From sequence record OP114734.1: a stretch of DNA of 64,000 nt, one strand, 5' to 3'. The stretch comes from Escherichia phage vB_ESM-pEJ01. Both the position numbers and the translations under genes were made by a program. This document shows positions 50,503-58,284 of this stretch, piece by piece. How positions within the stretch are numbered: position 1 is the first letter of the stretch; every line of letters starts with the position of its first letter. The notes beneath the pieces are model-generated. The model did no database searches and was not told the origin of the DNA. It saw nothing but the letters and a program-made list of their open reading frames with translations.

Positions 50503-52554
50503 TTACATTTTAAATTTATCTGGCATTGCGTCTACAGATACCAGATCAGCGATAAGCTGACGTAGAGTTGCCTTATCTGCTTTCTTACGTTCGGTTTTAG
50601 CTTCGCTAATGAAGCTGGAGAAAGACAGGTCAGAAGCAGGTTTAATAACACCTTCACGGATGAATGCATCACCGTCCGCGATCATCTCGCCAGATTCTTG
50701 TAATGCTGCCAGTTCATTTTTGTTCATAATATGTGCCTCAATGTAATAAGTTTCTTGTGAATCAGTCGATGCCGTGGCACTAGTTACCGTATCAAAGGAT
50801 AACACAACACCGCGAGGAAGTAAAATCTCGCATTCTTTGTAAGCAAATGCTTTGTTACCTACTGGCAATACAGGGATGTTTTCCGCGCCAGCAATGGAGA
50901 AAGCAACATTAGCGCCACCTTCACCGCGAGAGCCAGCCATAGAATCAACACCAGCAACGGCACTAGCCACGTTTGCATTCCAGCCGCCAAAAATGTTAGG
51001 TGCAAGGGAAGTGCTCACATAGTTTTTAAAGTAAAACGCTTTTTGCTTACGTGCAGTTTCCCACATTTGCGACCGGAAGTCCATACCACGATACAGAATA
51101 GTACCCGGATCAAGTTTAACGCCATAGTTGGAGAAGGCATTATCCAGTGCATCGCACATCTTGACCAATTCTTCTGGATCTGCGATGCCTTCAAACTCTT
51201 CCAGCTTACGGTCGGTTAGGAAGTTGTTCATATTGATGTATGCTGCATCGGCATATTCGCTCAACACAAAACCTTCCGCGCCTGGCAGATCAAGATCAAT
51301 ATCTGCCATCATTTCACCCATGTTGCTAGCAATTGCTTCAAACATACCGGACGCAACATTACGTAGGGCATCGGTTTTAATCTGGGTGATATGACTACGC
51401 AGCATTTCAGCTTTTACATCTGCTGGCATAGACTGGTCTACTCGATCCATTGCCAGGGCGGTGATCTTGTTTTCGAATACTTCCTCGCTCATGATTTCTT
51501 TTAAGCGTTTGACCGAGGCTGCGATAACTTCCGCAGACAACGGATCATATTGATCCTGAACTTTTACCAGTTCGCTTACTGCGTATTTTGCATCGGCTTC
51601 GCTTTCAAAAATAGTACGCATGAAACCATAGCGAGTGATAATATCACTTGTCCAGTCATTCAGAGAACGGGCGGTTGAACGTTCTAAGGCTTGACGGTCA
51701 ATCAGAGTATTAAACTGTTTCTTAGGTTCGGCTTCGGTGATATCTTCTTCCGGTTTAAGATTAATTTTTTCTGGATGATTCACATAGTCGCTGTTATAGG
51801 TCGCTTGAGTTTTCAGCATTTCTTCTTTAGTCAAACGAGATTTAGCCGCTACGCGTTGTTCCGCTTCCGCGTTTCGTTCTTCTTCTGACACAAGACTAGC
51901 CGCATACGCTTCATCTTTAGTCAGAGATTCACCGGTAGCCTTAGATACCCAGCGATCACCTAAATCACTTTCTACTTTAGTGAACAGGGAATCATCAAGT
52001 TTAATCCCTTTAATCTTATCAATCGCCATACCGCGACGCTTGACAACAACTAAAGCGATCTTTTTGCTGGTCATTACTTCCTGCTGGAATACTTCAAACT
52101 TCGGTGTACGACGCACCAAACGCTCTATAACGCGCTTAACCAGTTCGGTCTTACCTTTCATGCGGGATACGTTAAAACGGAACATAACAGCGTCTAATTG
52201 CGCTTTACGGGCTGTTTCCATAACCACATCAAAAGCACTTGCCATAACTGCAATCGGGTTATCACCTAGACCATTTTTAAGCTGTACAATACGACCGCTT
52301 TTGTTCATTTCGCACAGTACAACATGTGCGGTCTTGTCACCCATACGAATGATTTTAGGTGTTTTGTTGGTGAAGTTACAAAGACGGACAATCACATCTT
52401 TATCGCGTGTCTGTACTGCAAAAAGCTGTTTAGGATTCTGCTTAGGCTTTAAGCACTGTACCGGGGCAATACTACCAAAGTTTTCTTCCTCTTCCGTCAA
52501 CAGCCATTTCTCGAAAGATTCAATCATTAGATCGTCGATTTCTAAGTTAAACAT
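50503..52554 (-). CDS. alt: ADP-ribosyltransferase Alt
   Basis: 683 aa (T4 Alt 682 aa); C-terminal ART domain with ILYRG, YVSTS, ECEILLPRG; position between gene 54 and gene 30. Confidence 0.8.
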   Translation of the reverse strand: MFNLEIDDLMIESFEKWLLTEEEENFGSIAPVQCLKPKQNPKQLFAVQTRDKDVIVRLCNFTNKTPKIIRMGDKTAHVVLCEMNKSGRIVQLKNGLGDNPIAVMASAFDVVMETARKAQLDAVMFRFNVSRMKGKTELVKRVIERLVRRTPKFEVFQQEVMTSKKIALVVVKRRGMAIDKIKGIKLDDSLFTKVESDLGDRWVSKATGESLTKDEAYAASLVSEEERNAEAEQRVAAKSRLTKEEMLKTQATYNSDYVNHPEKINLKPEEDITEAEPKKQFNTLIDRQALERSTARSLNDWTSDIITRYGFMRTIFESEADAKYAVSELVKVQDQYDPLSAEVIAASVKRLKEIMSEEVFENKITALAMDRVDQSMPADVKAEMLRSHITQIKTDALRNVASGMFEAIASNMGEMMADIDLDLPGAEGFVLSEYADAAYINMNNFLTDRKLEEFEGIADPEELVKMCDALDNAFSNYGVKLDPGTILYRGMDFRSQMWETARKQKAFYFKNYVSTSLAPNIFGGWNANVASAVAGVDSMAGSRGEGGANVAFSIAGAENIPVLPVGNKAFAYKECEILLPRGVVLSFDTVTSATASTDSQETYYIEAHIMNKNELAALQESGEMIADGDAFIREGVIKPASDLSFSSFISEAKTERKKADKATLRQLIADLVSVDAMPDKFKM

Positions 52555-52621: not shown

Positions 52622-52834
52622 TTATAATGCACCATCGAGCAATTGCTCTAATGTGTATCCTGAATAGTCTTTTTCAATCAGGATATATTTTCCTACTCGT
52701 TTAATACAACCGCGCATTTCAACGTATTCTGCGTAGTTGATGGTGCGAGTTGTTCCATCTTCTAGCAAAGCAGTACCGATTTCGTTAATGCGGTCATAAG
52801 TTACGTCGGTAATGATGATTTCGATGTTAGCCAT
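52622..52834 (-). CDS. hypothetical protein (70 aa)
   Basis: start moved to ATG at 52834 (RBS AAGGAG); N-terminus MANIE identical to the ORF at 54721. Confidence 0.55.
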   Translation of the reverse strand: MANIEIIITDVTYDRINEIGTALLEDGTTRTINYAEYVEMRGCIKRVGKYILIEKDYSGYTLEQLLDGAL

Positions 52835-52870
52835 TTGATACTCCTTAGTAGTTCGTTTCGGTATGTGTGC

Positions 52871-52900
52871 ATTATAGGGGATCACCGATCCCCCTGTCAA
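52871..52900 (-). promoter_or_regulatory. PeSL-like early promoter unit 1 (TTGACA-N18-TATAAT, palindromic spacer)
   Basis: - strand -35 at 52895-52900, -10 at 52871-52876; spacer GGGGATC...GATCCCC. Confidence 0.6.
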
Positions 52901-52907
52901 CAACTTT

Positions 52908-53426
52908 TTAGTTATTTTTTAATTGTTCATCTTGCAATAATGCAATCACATGCTGGCGATGCTCTTCTGATTGAGGCACACCAAAAAAGTTTGTTTTGTA
53001 GAAATACTCTAATCGGTCTTCTCGTGTGCTCTCTTCCATCATGATCGCGGGTAGTCCGAGATTTCGGAAACGTCGCTTTTCTGCTGGCGTAAAATCACTG
53101 TAATACAACATAGAATCATCATTACCAGCAATGCTAAACTCATCCTTCATGAAAGAGAATATTGCGTTTAAACGCTGTTTACCGTCCACGATTTCGATCT
53201 CATAGCGAGAGCCATCATCAATCTTAGCCATTGCGATAGAGCCTACCGGAAAATCATTAATCATGTTTTCGATAAACATACGTTTGTTTTCGGTGTCCCA
53301 TACCAAAGGACGCTGATAATCTGGGTTCATGTTGATATAGCCATCTTCTAACCATGCCTCATAAACAGAGATGACAAAGTTTTTAGTATTGGTATAGTAA
53401 CGGCGTTTAGGCGTTAAACGGTTCAT
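52908..53426 (-). CDS. DUF262 / ParB-like nuclease-domain protein
   Basis: motifs NPDYQRPLVWD and VDGKQRLNA (DGQQR-type); start moved to ATG at 53426 (RBS AGGAG), 1 nt after the upstream stop. Confidence 0.65.
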   Translation of the reverse strand: MNRLTPKRRYYTNTKNFVISVYEAWLEDGYINMNPDYQRPLVWDTENKRMFIENMINDFPVGSIAMAKIDDGSRYEIEIVDGKQRLNAIFSFMKDEFSIAGNDDSMLYYSDFTPAEKRRFRNLGLPAIMMEESTREDRLEYFYKTNFFGVPQSEEHRQHVIALLQDEQLKNN

Positions 53427-53427
53427 G

Positions 53428-53760
53428 TTATAGTCTCCTGAATGGATCATCACGTAAATCAATATCTTTTAAGAACTCATCCCATGAATGGCGGATATTA
53501 TTCTTAATTCTCCAGATAAGCGAAGGGATTGAACGCTCTCCCATCTGGAAGTATGGATCATATGATCCGTATGCCCAATATGCTACTACAATTCCGCAAT
53601 CAGTGCAATAGTATTCTATCTCGCTTGCTGGCGACCAAAGTCCATCAATATGATCACGGATCTTGCTTTCAATGTTATGACTATGGCAATCAGGGCAACG
53701 GATGCAATGACCTTGTTTGTCATAATTTGACGTTAGCGAATACTTAAACAATCTCATCAT
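53428..53760 (-). CDS. Zn-ribbon protein (110 aa)
   Basis: CIRCPDC...H and CTDCG cysteine pairs; start overlaps upstream stop by 4 nt. Confidence 0.6.
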   Translation of the reverse strand: MMRLFKYSLTSNYDKQGHCIRCPDCHSHNIESKIRDHIDGLWSPASEIEYYCTDCGIVVAYWAYGSYDPYFQMGERSIPSLIWRIKNNIRHSWDEFLKDIDLRDDPFRRL

Positions 53761-54473
53761 AGATCCTTATTGGCTTCAAATACTGCCTTTGCGAATCCTC
53801 GCGGGGTAAGTGACCTGATAGTCTTTGTTCTGGTTCCTTTCCCGCCTAGCTTAGAATGCTGTTTACTGTACCCTTTATTAATCGGCAACGGTTTCTTTTC
53901 TGGCATTATAAAGCCTTGTCCGGTCCATAAGCAAGTCTTTTTCGGGTACATATCACGGGCGGCAATATACTCAGGAAACGTAGGATGTATATCATCTTCC
54001 GGCAAATAACCGCCATATTCCCACGGGTGGAACATGTAATCAGGCTTACGCCACATGCTAGAGATAACGCTTACAGGATTCTCTATCATGTAGGGAACTC
54101 CTAGCCATTCACCCAAATAAGCGGTTATTTTAGCTGCCCGTACATCATGAACTTGAATCAACGGTCCTTGTTCTAGTTTCTTTCGTTCAAAGTGCGCAGC
54201 GCCACTAACAGCTAAATTGGTGCACGGTGGGAATGCAAAGATAATATCCGGTTTCCCCCATTCAAGGTCCATTGCTCTTTCCAGCCAGTTCAAATCAATC
54301 CAGGTGTTTACATAGGTAATGTTTTGATGTTCAAATCGGGTATTATATTTTTTGTATGTACCGTGGTCGCCATCGTCAGCATTAAAGCAGATCACCTTAT
54401 GACCTGCTTTAGCCCATTCTAACCCCATTATCCCCGATCCGTCAAAGTTGCAGAATATTAATTTTTGTTTCAC
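53757..54473 (-). CDS. compact DNA C5-cytosine methyltransferase-like protein (no large target-recognition domain)
   Basis: motif I FCNFDGSGIMG, motif IV FAFPPCTNLAVSGA (Pro-Cys), motif VI MIENPVS, motif IX-like IRSLTPRGFAKA in canonical order; GTG start overlapping upstream TGA. Confidence 0.65.
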   Translation of the reverse strand: MKQKLIFCNFDGSGIMGLEWAKAGHKVICFNADDGDHGTYKKYNTRFEHQNITYVNTWIDLNWLERAMDLEWGKPDIIFAFPPCTNLAVSGAAHFERKKLEQGPLIQVHDVRAAKITAYLGEWLGVPYMIENPVSVISSMWRKPDYMFHPWEYGGYLPEDDIHPTFPEYIAARDMYPKKTCLWTGQGFIMPEKKPLPINKGYSKQHSKLGGKGTRTKTIRSLTPRGFAKAVFEANKDL

Positions 54474-54721
54474 GCTGCCCCCATTGGTTTGATAGTAACA
54501 GAATCTAAAAGACCTTTGTTAGCCAGTTCGCGGCAAGTTTTCAGATCCGCAACTTCCCAGCCAGCCGCAATCAGGTTATCGATTAGGCTGTTAGCAACTT
54601 CTTCGCTCATGAAAGAGCACTGTTTGCCGATGGTGTAGCGTACACGCTGTAATTTCAGTTTACGGAAGCCTTTAACGTTCAGGTCTTTAGCGATTTTCTT
54701 TGCGGTTTCGATGTTAGCCAT
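54470..54721 (-). CDS. hypothetical protein (83 aa), first gene of the four-gene operon
   Basis: ATG with RBS GGAGAA directly downstream of PeSL unit 2; N-terminus MANIE. Confidence 0.55.
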   Translation of the reverse strand: MANIETAKKIAKDLNVKGFRKLKLQRVRYTIGKQCSFMSEEVANSLIDNLIAAGWEVADLKTCRELANKGLLDSVTIKPMGAA

Positions 54722-54761
54722 TGTTTGATTCTCCTAAGTGGTATCTCGTCTTGATGGTTGT

Positions 54762-54790
54762 ATTGTAGGGGAGTTATCCTCCCCTGTCAA
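54762..54790 (-). promoter_or_regulatory. PeSL-like early promoter unit 2 (TTGACA-N17-TACAAT)
   Basis: palindromic spacer GGGGAGGATAACTCCCC. Confidence 0.6.
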
Positions 54791-54804
54791 CACTTTTTAT
54801 AAAA

Positions 54805-54972
54805 TTATTTGTTAATTTCTGGTGCGTTGCTAGGATAGTAACCTTCTTTAACTCCGAGATATTTCGCAACCATCCCTACAATCTTCTGTGCTACTACAAT
54901 GTCAAATTTCAGATAATCTTCGCCGTGGGTTTCAATGATATATGCTTCACATGCTGCTTTAGTCTCGAACAT
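54805..54972 (-). CDS. small protein (55 aa), paralog of 58083-58250
   Basis: manually found ORF MFETKAACEAYIIETHGEDYLKFDIVVAQKIVGMVAKYLGVKEGYYPSNAPEINK; RBS GGAGAA. Confidence 0.55.
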   Translation of the reverse strand: MFETKAACEAYIIETHGEDYLKFDIVVAQKIVGMVAKYLGVKEGYYPSNAPEINK

Positions 54973-55005
54973 TTTGATTCTCCTATTTCGTTTCGTTATG
55001 TGTGT

Positions 55006-55400: not shown

Positions 55401-55670
55401 TTAGATATTTTCAGAAATAAATTTTAAAACTTGACGTAAATGTTTCTCATCTTTGATAGTCGCCGGAAGTTCTTCTTTTACTTCCTGTGCAAGATAGATA
55501 TTTCCGTTCCAAGTGAAAGATCCGTCTTCGTTTACGCGATAGCTGAACATCCACTCGCAATCATTTTCGATTTCATATACACACAGAAGGGTGTAATCGT
55601 TAAAGCTATTGATTTCAAGGTCGAAGCCGTGACGTTTTGCAAAGTTGGTAGTGGTTTTAGTCAGCGCCAT
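55401..55670 (-). CDS. hypothetical protein (89 aa)
   Basis: ATG with RBS GGAGAA downstream of PeSL unit 5. Confidence 0.55.
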   Translation of the reverse strand: MALTKTTTNFAKRHGFDLEINSFNDYTLLCVYEIENDCEWMFSYRVNEDGSFTWNGNIYLAQEVKEELPATIKDEKHLRQVLKFISENI

Positions 55671-55710
55671 TGTTTGATTCTCCTAAGTGGTATCTCGTTT
55701 CGATGGGTGT

Positions 55711-55739
55711 ATTATGCTATAGGCGTGATCTGGTGTCAA
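55711..55739 (-). promoter_or_regulatory. PeSL-like early promoter unit 5 (TTGACA-N17-CATAAT)
   Basis: leader nearly identical to unit 6. Confidence 0.5.
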
Positions 55740-58079: not shown

Positions 58080-58082
58080 CTA

Positions 58083-58250
58083 TTATTTGTTAATTTCCGG
58101 TGCGTTGCTCGGATAGTAACCTTCTTTAACACCTAGATATTTTGCAACCATTCCGGTGATCTTCTGTGCTACTACGATATCGAATTTCAGGTAGTCTTCA
58201 CCGTGGTTTGCTACAATGTATGCTTCGCATTCTGCTTTAGTCTGGAACAT
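58083..58250 (-). CDS. small protein (55 aa), paralog of 54805-54972
   Basis: start moved to ATG at 58250; MFQTKAECEAYIVANHGEDYLKFDIVVAQKITGMVAKYLGVKEGYYPSNAPEINK. Confidence 0.55.
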   Translation of the reverse strand: MFQTKAECEAYIVANHGEDYLKFDIVVAQKITGMVAKYLGVKEGYYPSNAPEINK

Positions 58251-58284
58251 TTTTGATTCTCCTATATCTCGTTGGTATGTGTGC

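Follow-up and report, generated by a model that had tools for sequence, protein, structure and literature searches.

A PeSL-bounded early unit of an RB49-like coliphage is probably a mosaic of four accessory genes that includes a stand-alone compact cytosine methyltransferase

We analyzed a stretch of 64,000 nucleotides from Escherichia phage vB_ESM-pEJ01 (sequence record OP114734.1; the whole stretch is called the window below), in which four minus-strand genes at 52908-54721 code for an 83-amino-acid (aa) protein, a 238-aa methyltransferase-like protein, a 110-aa zinc-ribbon protein and a 172-aa DUF262 protein. Our results suggest that this operon is most likely a mosaic of independent early accessory genes and not a new split enzyme, because the genes are unlinked elsewhere, a diverged version of the operon lacks the methyltransferase and a further small gene, p189.1, varies between presence and absence. 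The explanation that we regard as probable is that PeSL cassettes bound a set of four unrelated accessory genes, in which the methyltransferase stands alone. An earlier sequence-only reading had placed the four genes in one PeSL-bounded, tightly packed unit, and this was confirmed by the open reading frames (ORFs), the junctions and the flanking PeSLs:

54762-54790, minus strand, PeSL early promoter of the unit (TTGACA-GGGGAGGATAACTCCCC-TACAAT, with a GGGGAG...CTCCCC stem-loop; 11/12 of the consensus)
54470-54721, minus strand, gene of the 83-aa protein (RB49p190, phrog_14908)
53757-54473, minus strand, gene of the 238-aa predicted compact C5-cytosine DNA methyltransferase, with a GTG start (RB49p189, phrog_757)
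53428-53760, minus strand, gene of the 110-aa zinc-ribbon protein (RB49p188, phrog_2993)
52908-53426, minus strand, gene of the 172-aa stand-alone DUF262/GmrSD_N protein (RB49p187, phrog_1583)
52871-52900, minus strand, next PeSL cassette, directly past the last stop (12/12 of the consensus)

The window is ~97% identical to RB49, KFS-EC, phi1, JSE and other Krischvirus genomes (~56), and on this identity its source is assigned to Krischvirus as an RB49-like coliphage. The four-gene block corresponds to RB49p190/p189/p188/p187 in the RB49 annotation, where p189 is labelled 'DNA methyltransferase', and all four genes were kept in ~56 of the ~56 Krischvirus genomes examined. The block is a conserved, annotated and already known Krischvirus feature. 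By the terms of the sequence-only reading, a common, already characterised T4-like module would have counted against it, and this applies in part; the block is indeed a common Krischvirus module and the enzyme family has been characterised, although the other three genes have not.

The 238-aa protein is placed by its sequence in a compact phage 'Dcm-like' family of C5-cytosine DNA methyltransferases. In PHROGs it belongs to phrog_757 (E 1.3e-89, residues 1-237), with a single-domain architecture of ~230 aa, and a large protein database held 7,330 related protein clusters (E <= 0.001), the best 120 of which are 219-259 aa long. The compact methyltransferase is encoded in 1,523 of 50,697 phage records, and its carriers include Drexlerviridae, Vequintavirus, Webervirus, phiKO2 and Campylobacter phages, among others. 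Four motifs were invariant in 25/25 family members (F10-x-G12-S13-G14, P82-P83-C84, E131-N132-P133 and R220-S-L-T-x-R225), and motif I, the Pro-Cys of motif IV and the ENV-type Glu of motif VI stand in canonical order, as had been claimed. In the methyltransferase gene these motifs are located as follows:

54432-54446, minus strand, motif I FDGSG
54222-54230, minus strand, catalytic PPC
54075-54083, minus strand, ENP motif
53799-53816, minus strand, RSLTPR motif

The Pfam C5-methyltransferase profile PF00145 matched the protein below threshold (E 0.087, 12.7 bits vs. a gathering cut-off of 22, residues 10-93 only), and a few members of the compact family have a precomputed PF00145 match. Of the two profile searches that the sequence-only reading had proposed, the match to DUF262 thus exceeded its cut-off whereas the one to PF00145 did not. 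Searching PDB with the protein by phmmer gave no match, the family profile retrieved solely motif I of M.HaeIII (E 0.82), and hhalign against E. coli Dcm aligned motif IV alone (E 0.12). Since the sequence and profile searches of PDB were nearly empty, a fold comparison was needed. The AlphaFold model of the protein was confident (pLDDT 89), and its top structural neighbours were DNMT3B, DNMT3A, a C5-carboxymethyltransferase, a prophage methyltransferase, EhMeth and M.HhaI. The model points to a class-I S-adenosylmethionine (SAM) methyltransferase fold that is nearest to C5-methyltransferases, in line with the sequence-only reading. The canonical bacterial enzymes of PF00145 (M.HhaI, M.HaeIII and E. 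coli Dcm) have the same class-I fold, motif order and catalytic Pro-Cys, whereas the 238-aa protein is about 90-230 residues shorter and has no large target-recognition domain (TRD); only about 60-70 residues separate its motif VI/VIII region from motif IX, so that a normal TRD has no room, as had been noticed from the sequence. DNMT3, the closest structure, is TRD-poor as well. The catalytic domains of DNMT3A/DNMT3B are 13-17% identical to the 238-aa protein with a TM score of about 0.45-0.5, and the resemblance, as modelled, appears to be one of fold and not of family membership.

That an enzyme of this family can work by itself is known from the literature. Plasmid expression of Dcm alone (711 bp, from the KarlJaspers-like phage K42) raises 5-methylcytosine (5mC) on the multicopy single-stranded DNA (msDNA) of retron Ec86, as measured by liquid chromatography coupled to mass spectrometry (LC-MS), and triggers Ec86 defence, while the mutant C82A/E128A/K175A/K176A gave no 5mC rise and no triggering (bioRxiv 10.1101/2023.08.16.553469). 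The KarlJaspers protein bas06_0055 is 55% identical to the 238-aa protein over its full length, and the K42/KarlJaspers Dcm further resembles it in size (~236 aa) and in the invariant FDGSG/PPC/ENP/RSLTPR motifs. The residues mutated in K42 Dcm (C82, E128, K175 and K176) correspond to C84, E131, K177 and K178. The K42/KarlJaspers Dcm is encoded by a Drexlerviridae siphovirus, in contrast to the 238-aa enzyme, which is found in a T4-like myovirus within a four-gene PeSL unit. Because RB49 is propagated on E. coli B (PMC4041780) and the B-derived BL21(DE3) carries retron Ec86 (bioRxiv 10.1101/2023.08.16.553469), the effect of the 238-aa enzyme on Ec86 may differ from that of K42 Dcm.

Linkage between the four genes was analyzed in the 5-kb neighbourhoods of the 80 closest IMG/VR loci for the compact methyltransferase and of 80 loci for a short DUF262 protein. 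A DUF262, zinc-ribbon or 83-aa gene was found at 2/80 methyltransferase loci, and these are the two Krischvirus loci; all 78 of the 78 non-Krischvirus loci were without any of the three within 5 kb. Likewise, the compact methyltransferase was present at 2/80 short-DUF262 loci, the same two Krischvirus loci, and missing from the remaining 78/78. The genes were also unlinked in the single contexts of SSE121, KarlJaspers, P0004, RB43, vB_Mm5, ST64B, 9g and metagenome contigs. Conserved co-occurrence across lineages, which marks subunits of a split enzyme, is not seen for the four families, and the compact Dcm-like family has no conserved neighbours, as is the case for an enzyme without partners. 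One metagenomic contig (L010) has the same gene order with diverged copies of the 83-aa (about 72-73%), zinc-ribbon (65%) and DUF262 (56%) genes, and additionally a p189.1-like gene and a 46-aa ORF; the methyltransferase is absent from this version of the operon.

Gene content also varies inside the unit. The 81-aa gene p189.1 lies between the 83-aa gene and the methyltransferase gene in RB49, TB34, SAP and KFS-EC and is absent from the window, and compared with these four phages the direct junction between the two genes is specific to the window. At this junction, GCGTGAAAC, the TGA stop and the GTG start share 4 nt (GTGA). The RB49 junctions p190/p189.1 and p189.1/methyltransferase are near-repeats, GGGGGCAGCGTGAAAAGAAAATTAAT and GGGGCGTATATGAAACAAAAATTAAT, and near-identical over ~25 nt (RB49 locus L001 6255-6270 and 6013-6030; window 54465-54480), and the p189.1 and methyltransferase proteins both start with (V/M)K(R/Q)KLI. 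The window junction is a recombinant of both RB49 junctions that removes p189.1 exactly, and the GTGA coupling is therefore a recent deletion scar left by recombination of two similar coupling junctions. Gene gain and loss inside the operon appear to happen at duplicated coupling junctions.

Hydroxymethylated cytosine, as in T4, would have made a C5-methyltransferase unexpected, and the sequence-only reading had raised this concern; it falls away, as the window comes from an RB49-like phage with ordinary cytosine (PMC4041780, PMC13390438), so there is no clash of the enzyme with hydroxymethylcytosine. RB49 has no hydroxymethylase, and HpaII and NheI cut its DNA (PMC4041780). The Krischvirus TB34 has canonical cytosine, with no modified nucleoside by high-performance liquid chromatography and mass spectrometry (HPLC/MS), and BrxU leaves its DNA uncut (PMC13390438); this enzyme cuts 5mC DNA. 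In the window, GAATTC, AAGCTT, GGATCC, TCCGGA, CAGCTG, CCGCGG, AGCGCT and AGTACT do not occur at all (8.6-28.5 expected), CCWGG occurs 25 times vs. 80 expected (observed/expected 0.31) and GGCC 27 times vs. 73 expected (0.37); CCGG and GATC are not depleted. Such palindrome avoidance would fit a genome whose DNA, unprotected, has long faced restriction. If the target were CCWGG, the depletion would leave roughly 0.2% of the cytosines methylated, and the enzyme would therefore be compatible with DNA that is 'unmodified' by HPLC and in the BrxU assay. Sparse methylation would likewise agree with the cutting of RB49 DNA by HpaII/NheI and with the HPLC/MS and BrxU results for TB34.

Taken together, we propose that PeSLs bound the locus as a single early transcription unit within a hyperplastic Krischvirus region, where four unrelated accessory genes would have been brought together through recombination of cassettes and junctions. 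The 238-aa protein would act as a stand-alone SAM-dependent cytosine-C5 methyltransferase with Cys84 (PPC) as nucleophile and Glu131 (ENP), and, driven by a sigma-70-type early promoter, would methylate sparse sites on phage (and host) DNA. The benefit, we infer, is that methylated sites are shielded from some host restriction enzymes, and the cost would be that defences triggered by methylation, such as retron Ec86, can sense the enzyme. The 83-aa, zinc-ribbon and nuclease-less DUF262 proteins would be independent accessory genes.

Several observations weigh against this proposal. All four genes are retained throughout the ~56 Krischvirus genomes, and in L010, the sole diverged relative found, the 83-aa, zinc-ribbon and DUF262 genes are still syntenic, so these three may be functionally linked. 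The sequence similarity of the 238-aa protein to canonical C5-methyltransferases is marginal (12.7 bits in Pfam, E 0.12 in hhalign), and 5mC activity was shown for the 55%-identical homolog, by analogy with which that of the Krischvirus enzyme is predicted. The CCWGG specificity of K42 Dcm was assumed from E. coli Dcm and not mapped (bioRxiv 10.1101/2023.08.16.553469). Finally, the undetected 5mC in TB34 could also mean that the enzyme does not act on phage DNA.

The DUF262 signature that had been recognised in the last gene was confirmed, as a domain without a nuclease. Pfam GmrSD_N (PF03235) matched the 172-aa protein with E 3.2e-20 (73.5 bits vs. a cut-off of 33.2); DYQRP occupies residues 36-40 and DGKQR residues 81-85. 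PADLOC gave a match to NsnA (E 3.7e-20), and the family profile found BrxU (7p9k, E 8e-6) and SspE (E 0.011) in PDB. YQR..VW, DGKQRL and NFxGVPQSxxH are invariant among its relatives, and 301 phage records encode short relatives, RB43/RB16, Slopekvirus, ST64B and Henunavirus among them. The protein shares the DUF262 core and the QR..VW and DGxQR motifs with GmrSD, BrxU, SspE and the Menshen protein NsnA. However, it is one third as long as GmrSD and has neither a DUF1524/HNH domain nor an adjacent nuclease gene; Pfam and PADLOC scans found no match to a nuclease family, DUF1524/His-Me finger included, in the protein, which ends at 172 aa, or in the adjoining genes. GmrSD-type type IV restriction enzymes have their nuclease domain fused or next door, and the 172-aa protein does not belong to this restriction-enzyme family; it acts at most like the sensor/NTPase half. 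A single-sequence AlphaFold model was unusable (pLDDT 38.6); the alignment from a word-indexed search (4 matches) was too shallow. Most likely the protein binds nucleoside triphosphates and binds DNA or senses modified DNA in phage-host or phage-phage conflict.

GmrSD, SspE and Dazbog have DUF262 as their modified-DNA-sensing or NTPase module, and BrxU cuts 5mC DNA, which would favour a functional pair in which the DUF262 protein either binds DNA that is methylated or poisons type IV enzymes of the DUF262 type in the host (GmrSD/BrxU, SspE, Dazbog-like) and so shields the phage from the liability of its own 5mC marks. Every Krischvirus co-transcribes the two genes, and five Henunavirus-like loci have a short DUF262 gene ~1 kb from an unrelated NPPY-type DNA methyltransferase. 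We nevertheless consider such a pair unlikely: none of the 78 compact-Dcm loci examined outside Krischvirus had a DUF262 gene, and an anti-defence role of a stand-alone DUF262 protein is hypothetical. Moreover, 73/80 IMG/VR short-DUF262 loci had no compact Dcm or Hena1 NPPY homolog within 5 kb, and the DUF262 loci of RB43, vB_Mm5, ST64B, L010 and L011 were likewise without either; these two enzymes were the queries, and other methyltransferase types were not searched for. It is similarly doubtful that the DUF262 protein, perhaps joined by the zinc-ribbon and 83-aa proteins, forms a counter-defence module against methylation-sensing host systems, and there is only a small chance that DUF262-type type IV enzymes or retron Ec86 are its targets. 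The basis of a counter-defence partnership is confined to co-transcription in one genus and the loose Henunavirus-like association with an unrelated methyltransferase. In the Henunavirus-like phages the short DUF262 gene lies ~1 kb downstream of the NPPY-type (N6/N4) enzyme gene (Erwinia phage Hena1, L007 1403-3516, and loci L037, L040 and L045-L047), and this is a second, independent pair of a DUF262 and a methyltransferase gene. Hena1 gp037, beside the DUF262 gene, was also considered as a compact Dcm and rejected, being the unrelated NPPY-type methyltransferase.

The sequence-only reading had raised the possibility of a split modification enzyme, in which the TRD-poor methyltransferase needs the zinc-ribbon and/or DUF262 proteins, and perhaps the 83-aa protein, for targeting, with translational coupling to ensure stoichiometry. 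The very small stretch before motif IX, the tight packing of the genes and the retention of all four in the ~56 Krischvirus genomes speak for it, and yet it is very unlikely. The 55%-identical homolog is active alone, DNMT3A/B, the best structural neighbours, also function with a minimal TRD, 78/78 non-Krischvirus methyltransferase loci are without the partners, and L010 keeps the putative partners without the methyltransferase. The junctions do not argue for stoichiometric co-expression either. The methyltransferase/zinc-ribbon junction CTATGATGA is a 4-nt ATGA overlap, or 1 nt if counted from the second ATG, which is RB49's choice, and the zinc-ribbon/DUF262 junction TAAcATG is a 1-nt spacer without overlap, so that of the three junctions described as overlapping (GTGA, 4 nt, 1 nt) only the first two are. 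The DUF262 gene starts with the ATG at 53426, with an AGGAG Shine-Dalgarno sequence, and its mechanically listed 184-aa ORF with a TTG start is probably too long, because RB49 annotates a 519-bp version. In the RB49 table, a junction is either very tight or a gap of 45-122 nt, in most cases of 65-85 nt, as long as one PeSL cassette. Inside the multi-gene PeSL units of this region genes are tightly packed as a rule, and coupling here therefore says little on stoichiometric complexes; the GTGA junction, in addition, is a recent deletion product.

Still less likely is another chemistry or substrate, such as carboxymethylation with carboxy-SAM or the first step of a TET-type pathway from 5mC through 5-hydroxymethylcytosine to a glycosylated base that would explain the Krischvirus SAP, as the K42 homolog made 5mC by LC-MS, full cytosine replacement is impossible for a site-specific enzyme, and strong palindrome avoidance points to a history of unprotected cytosine DNA. 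For SAP, glucosylated hydroxymethylcytosine was reported without known pathway genes, its authors found no dioxygenase or glycosyltransferase, and TB34, 99.96% identical, is unmodified (PMC13390438). All four operon genes are identical in SAP and TB34, and the operon therefore cannot explain the modified cytosines of SAP; the locus was rejected as their cause. The two loci differ in a duplicated 79-bp PeSL between the p187 and p186 homologs, the sole sizeable local difference, and in a few intergenic 1-nt indels. This tandem duplication (SAP, L003 1888-1966; TB34, L002 1887) creates a small extra ORF, SAP_052, and makes up 79 bp of the 112-bp length difference between the genomes.

The zinc-ribbon protein carries the cysteines C22-x2-C25 ... 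C52-x2-C55, and 164 clusters of stand-alone relatives of 55-140 aa were found. In 33 family members C22, C25 and C55 were invariant and C52, E47, W62, Y64 and G65 near-invariant. Homologs occur in Nonagvirus, Felixounavirus and others, in the first two without the partner genes. We also considered whether the protein could be a small HNH/His-Me nuclease that partners DUF262 (C22xxC25...D37H38...C52xxC55) and rejected this, as the 33 members had no conserved HNH His/Asn (D37 and H38 are variable) and no Pfam HNH match was found. RB43 ORF183c (112 aa), upstream of the RB43 DUF262 gene, was examined as a zinc-ribbon homolog and showed no similarity.

The 83-aa protein is 100% identical in most of 56 Krischvirus records and, among sequenced phages, is restricted to Krischvirus. 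The other three genes do not accompany the 45 related clusters found elsewhere, which include Salmonella islands and a P22-Cro-type phage contig; relatives in Salmonella islands and other phage contigs are 43-65% identical. A search for diverged operon copies with this protein gave only a known Krischvirus in IMG/VR and nothing in JGI metagenome contigs, and the large protein database contained prophage homologs without the partner genes. Matches to PPR proteins (E to 9e-10) were discarded, since they sum ten ~4-bit matches over designer repeats. PADLOC aligned the 83-aa protein to the C-terminal region of the UG35 defence reverse transcriptase (RT_UG35, positions 722-785 of 938, E 2.6e-5). 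On Salmonella enterica chromosomes (L176/L177 4001-4249) a 65%-identical homolog is the first gene of an element inserted beside the csg operon and sits immediately upstream of a large serine recombinase gene, and another homolog is labelled 'predicted transcriptional regulator' in its JGI source.

PeSLs were described for RB49 and phi1 (Arbiol et al. 2010, PMC2839356) and are presented by Comeau et al. (2014, PMC4122927) as composite promoter-terminator motifs. The two cassettes that bracket the unit are of this type, with sigma-70-like -35/-10 elements and a GC-rich spacer stem-loop, repeated and flanking the unit. The strict PeSL pattern occurs 5 times in the window vs. 0 expected from shuffles, and relaxed copies form 7-member repeat families within 50-64 kb. 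The stem-loops fold with -19.4 kcal/mol (54762-54790; z -5.8) and -14.0 kcal/mol (52871-52900), while inside the unit promoter-/terminator-like matches are at chance level (10 found vs. 8.7 expected). The cassette at 52871-52900 is probably both the promoter of the following unit and the terminator of the four-gene unit. As in RB49 and phi1, the region shows presence/absence polymorphism of small ORFs; the difference is that gain and loss within the unit (p189.1 and the methyltransferase) are at coupling junctions and not at PeSLs. The first 15 nt, ATGGCTAACATCGAA (MANIE), are common to the 83-aa gene (54707-54721) and to the p185 homolog of the next PeSL unit (52821-52835), and a repeat (54686-54764 vs. 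55635-55713, 77%) likewise spans a 5' untranslated region into a gene start; PeSL cassettes therefore seem to reach through the ribosome-binding site into the first codons.

Around the unit, p186, present in RB49 (L001 4207-4386), is absent from the window (~52904) and from KFS-EC. ORFan192 of RB49 (L001 6837-7313), which is excised as PeSL mini-circles (PMC2839356), is absent from the window as well (~55040). A 172-nt direct repeat (54804-54975 vs. 58082-58253, 85% identity) spans a 55-aa ORF, a homolog of p191, and probably arose by duplication of a PeSL-unit gene. Just downstream of the region (50503-52554), as in RB49, lies the gene of a 683-aa Alt-like RNA-polymerase ADP-ribosyltransferase.

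Our results remove a false lead: the 'TRD-less' methyltransferase is no oddity, as it belongs, by its sequence, to one of the commonest phage methyltransferase families, a homolog of which works alone and is sensed by retron Ec86. Pfam misses this family, which is found in >1,500 sequenced phages, and the name 'Dcm-like' stands for fold and motifs, not for a mapped specificity. About 300 phage genomes encode short DUF262 proteins without a nuclease, and a counter-defence DUF262 protein, if true, would let Krischvirus carry a C5-methyltransferase without its cost. For the Krischvirus operon itself, the window suggests that genes are gained and lost inside it through recombination of near-identical translational-coupling junctions.

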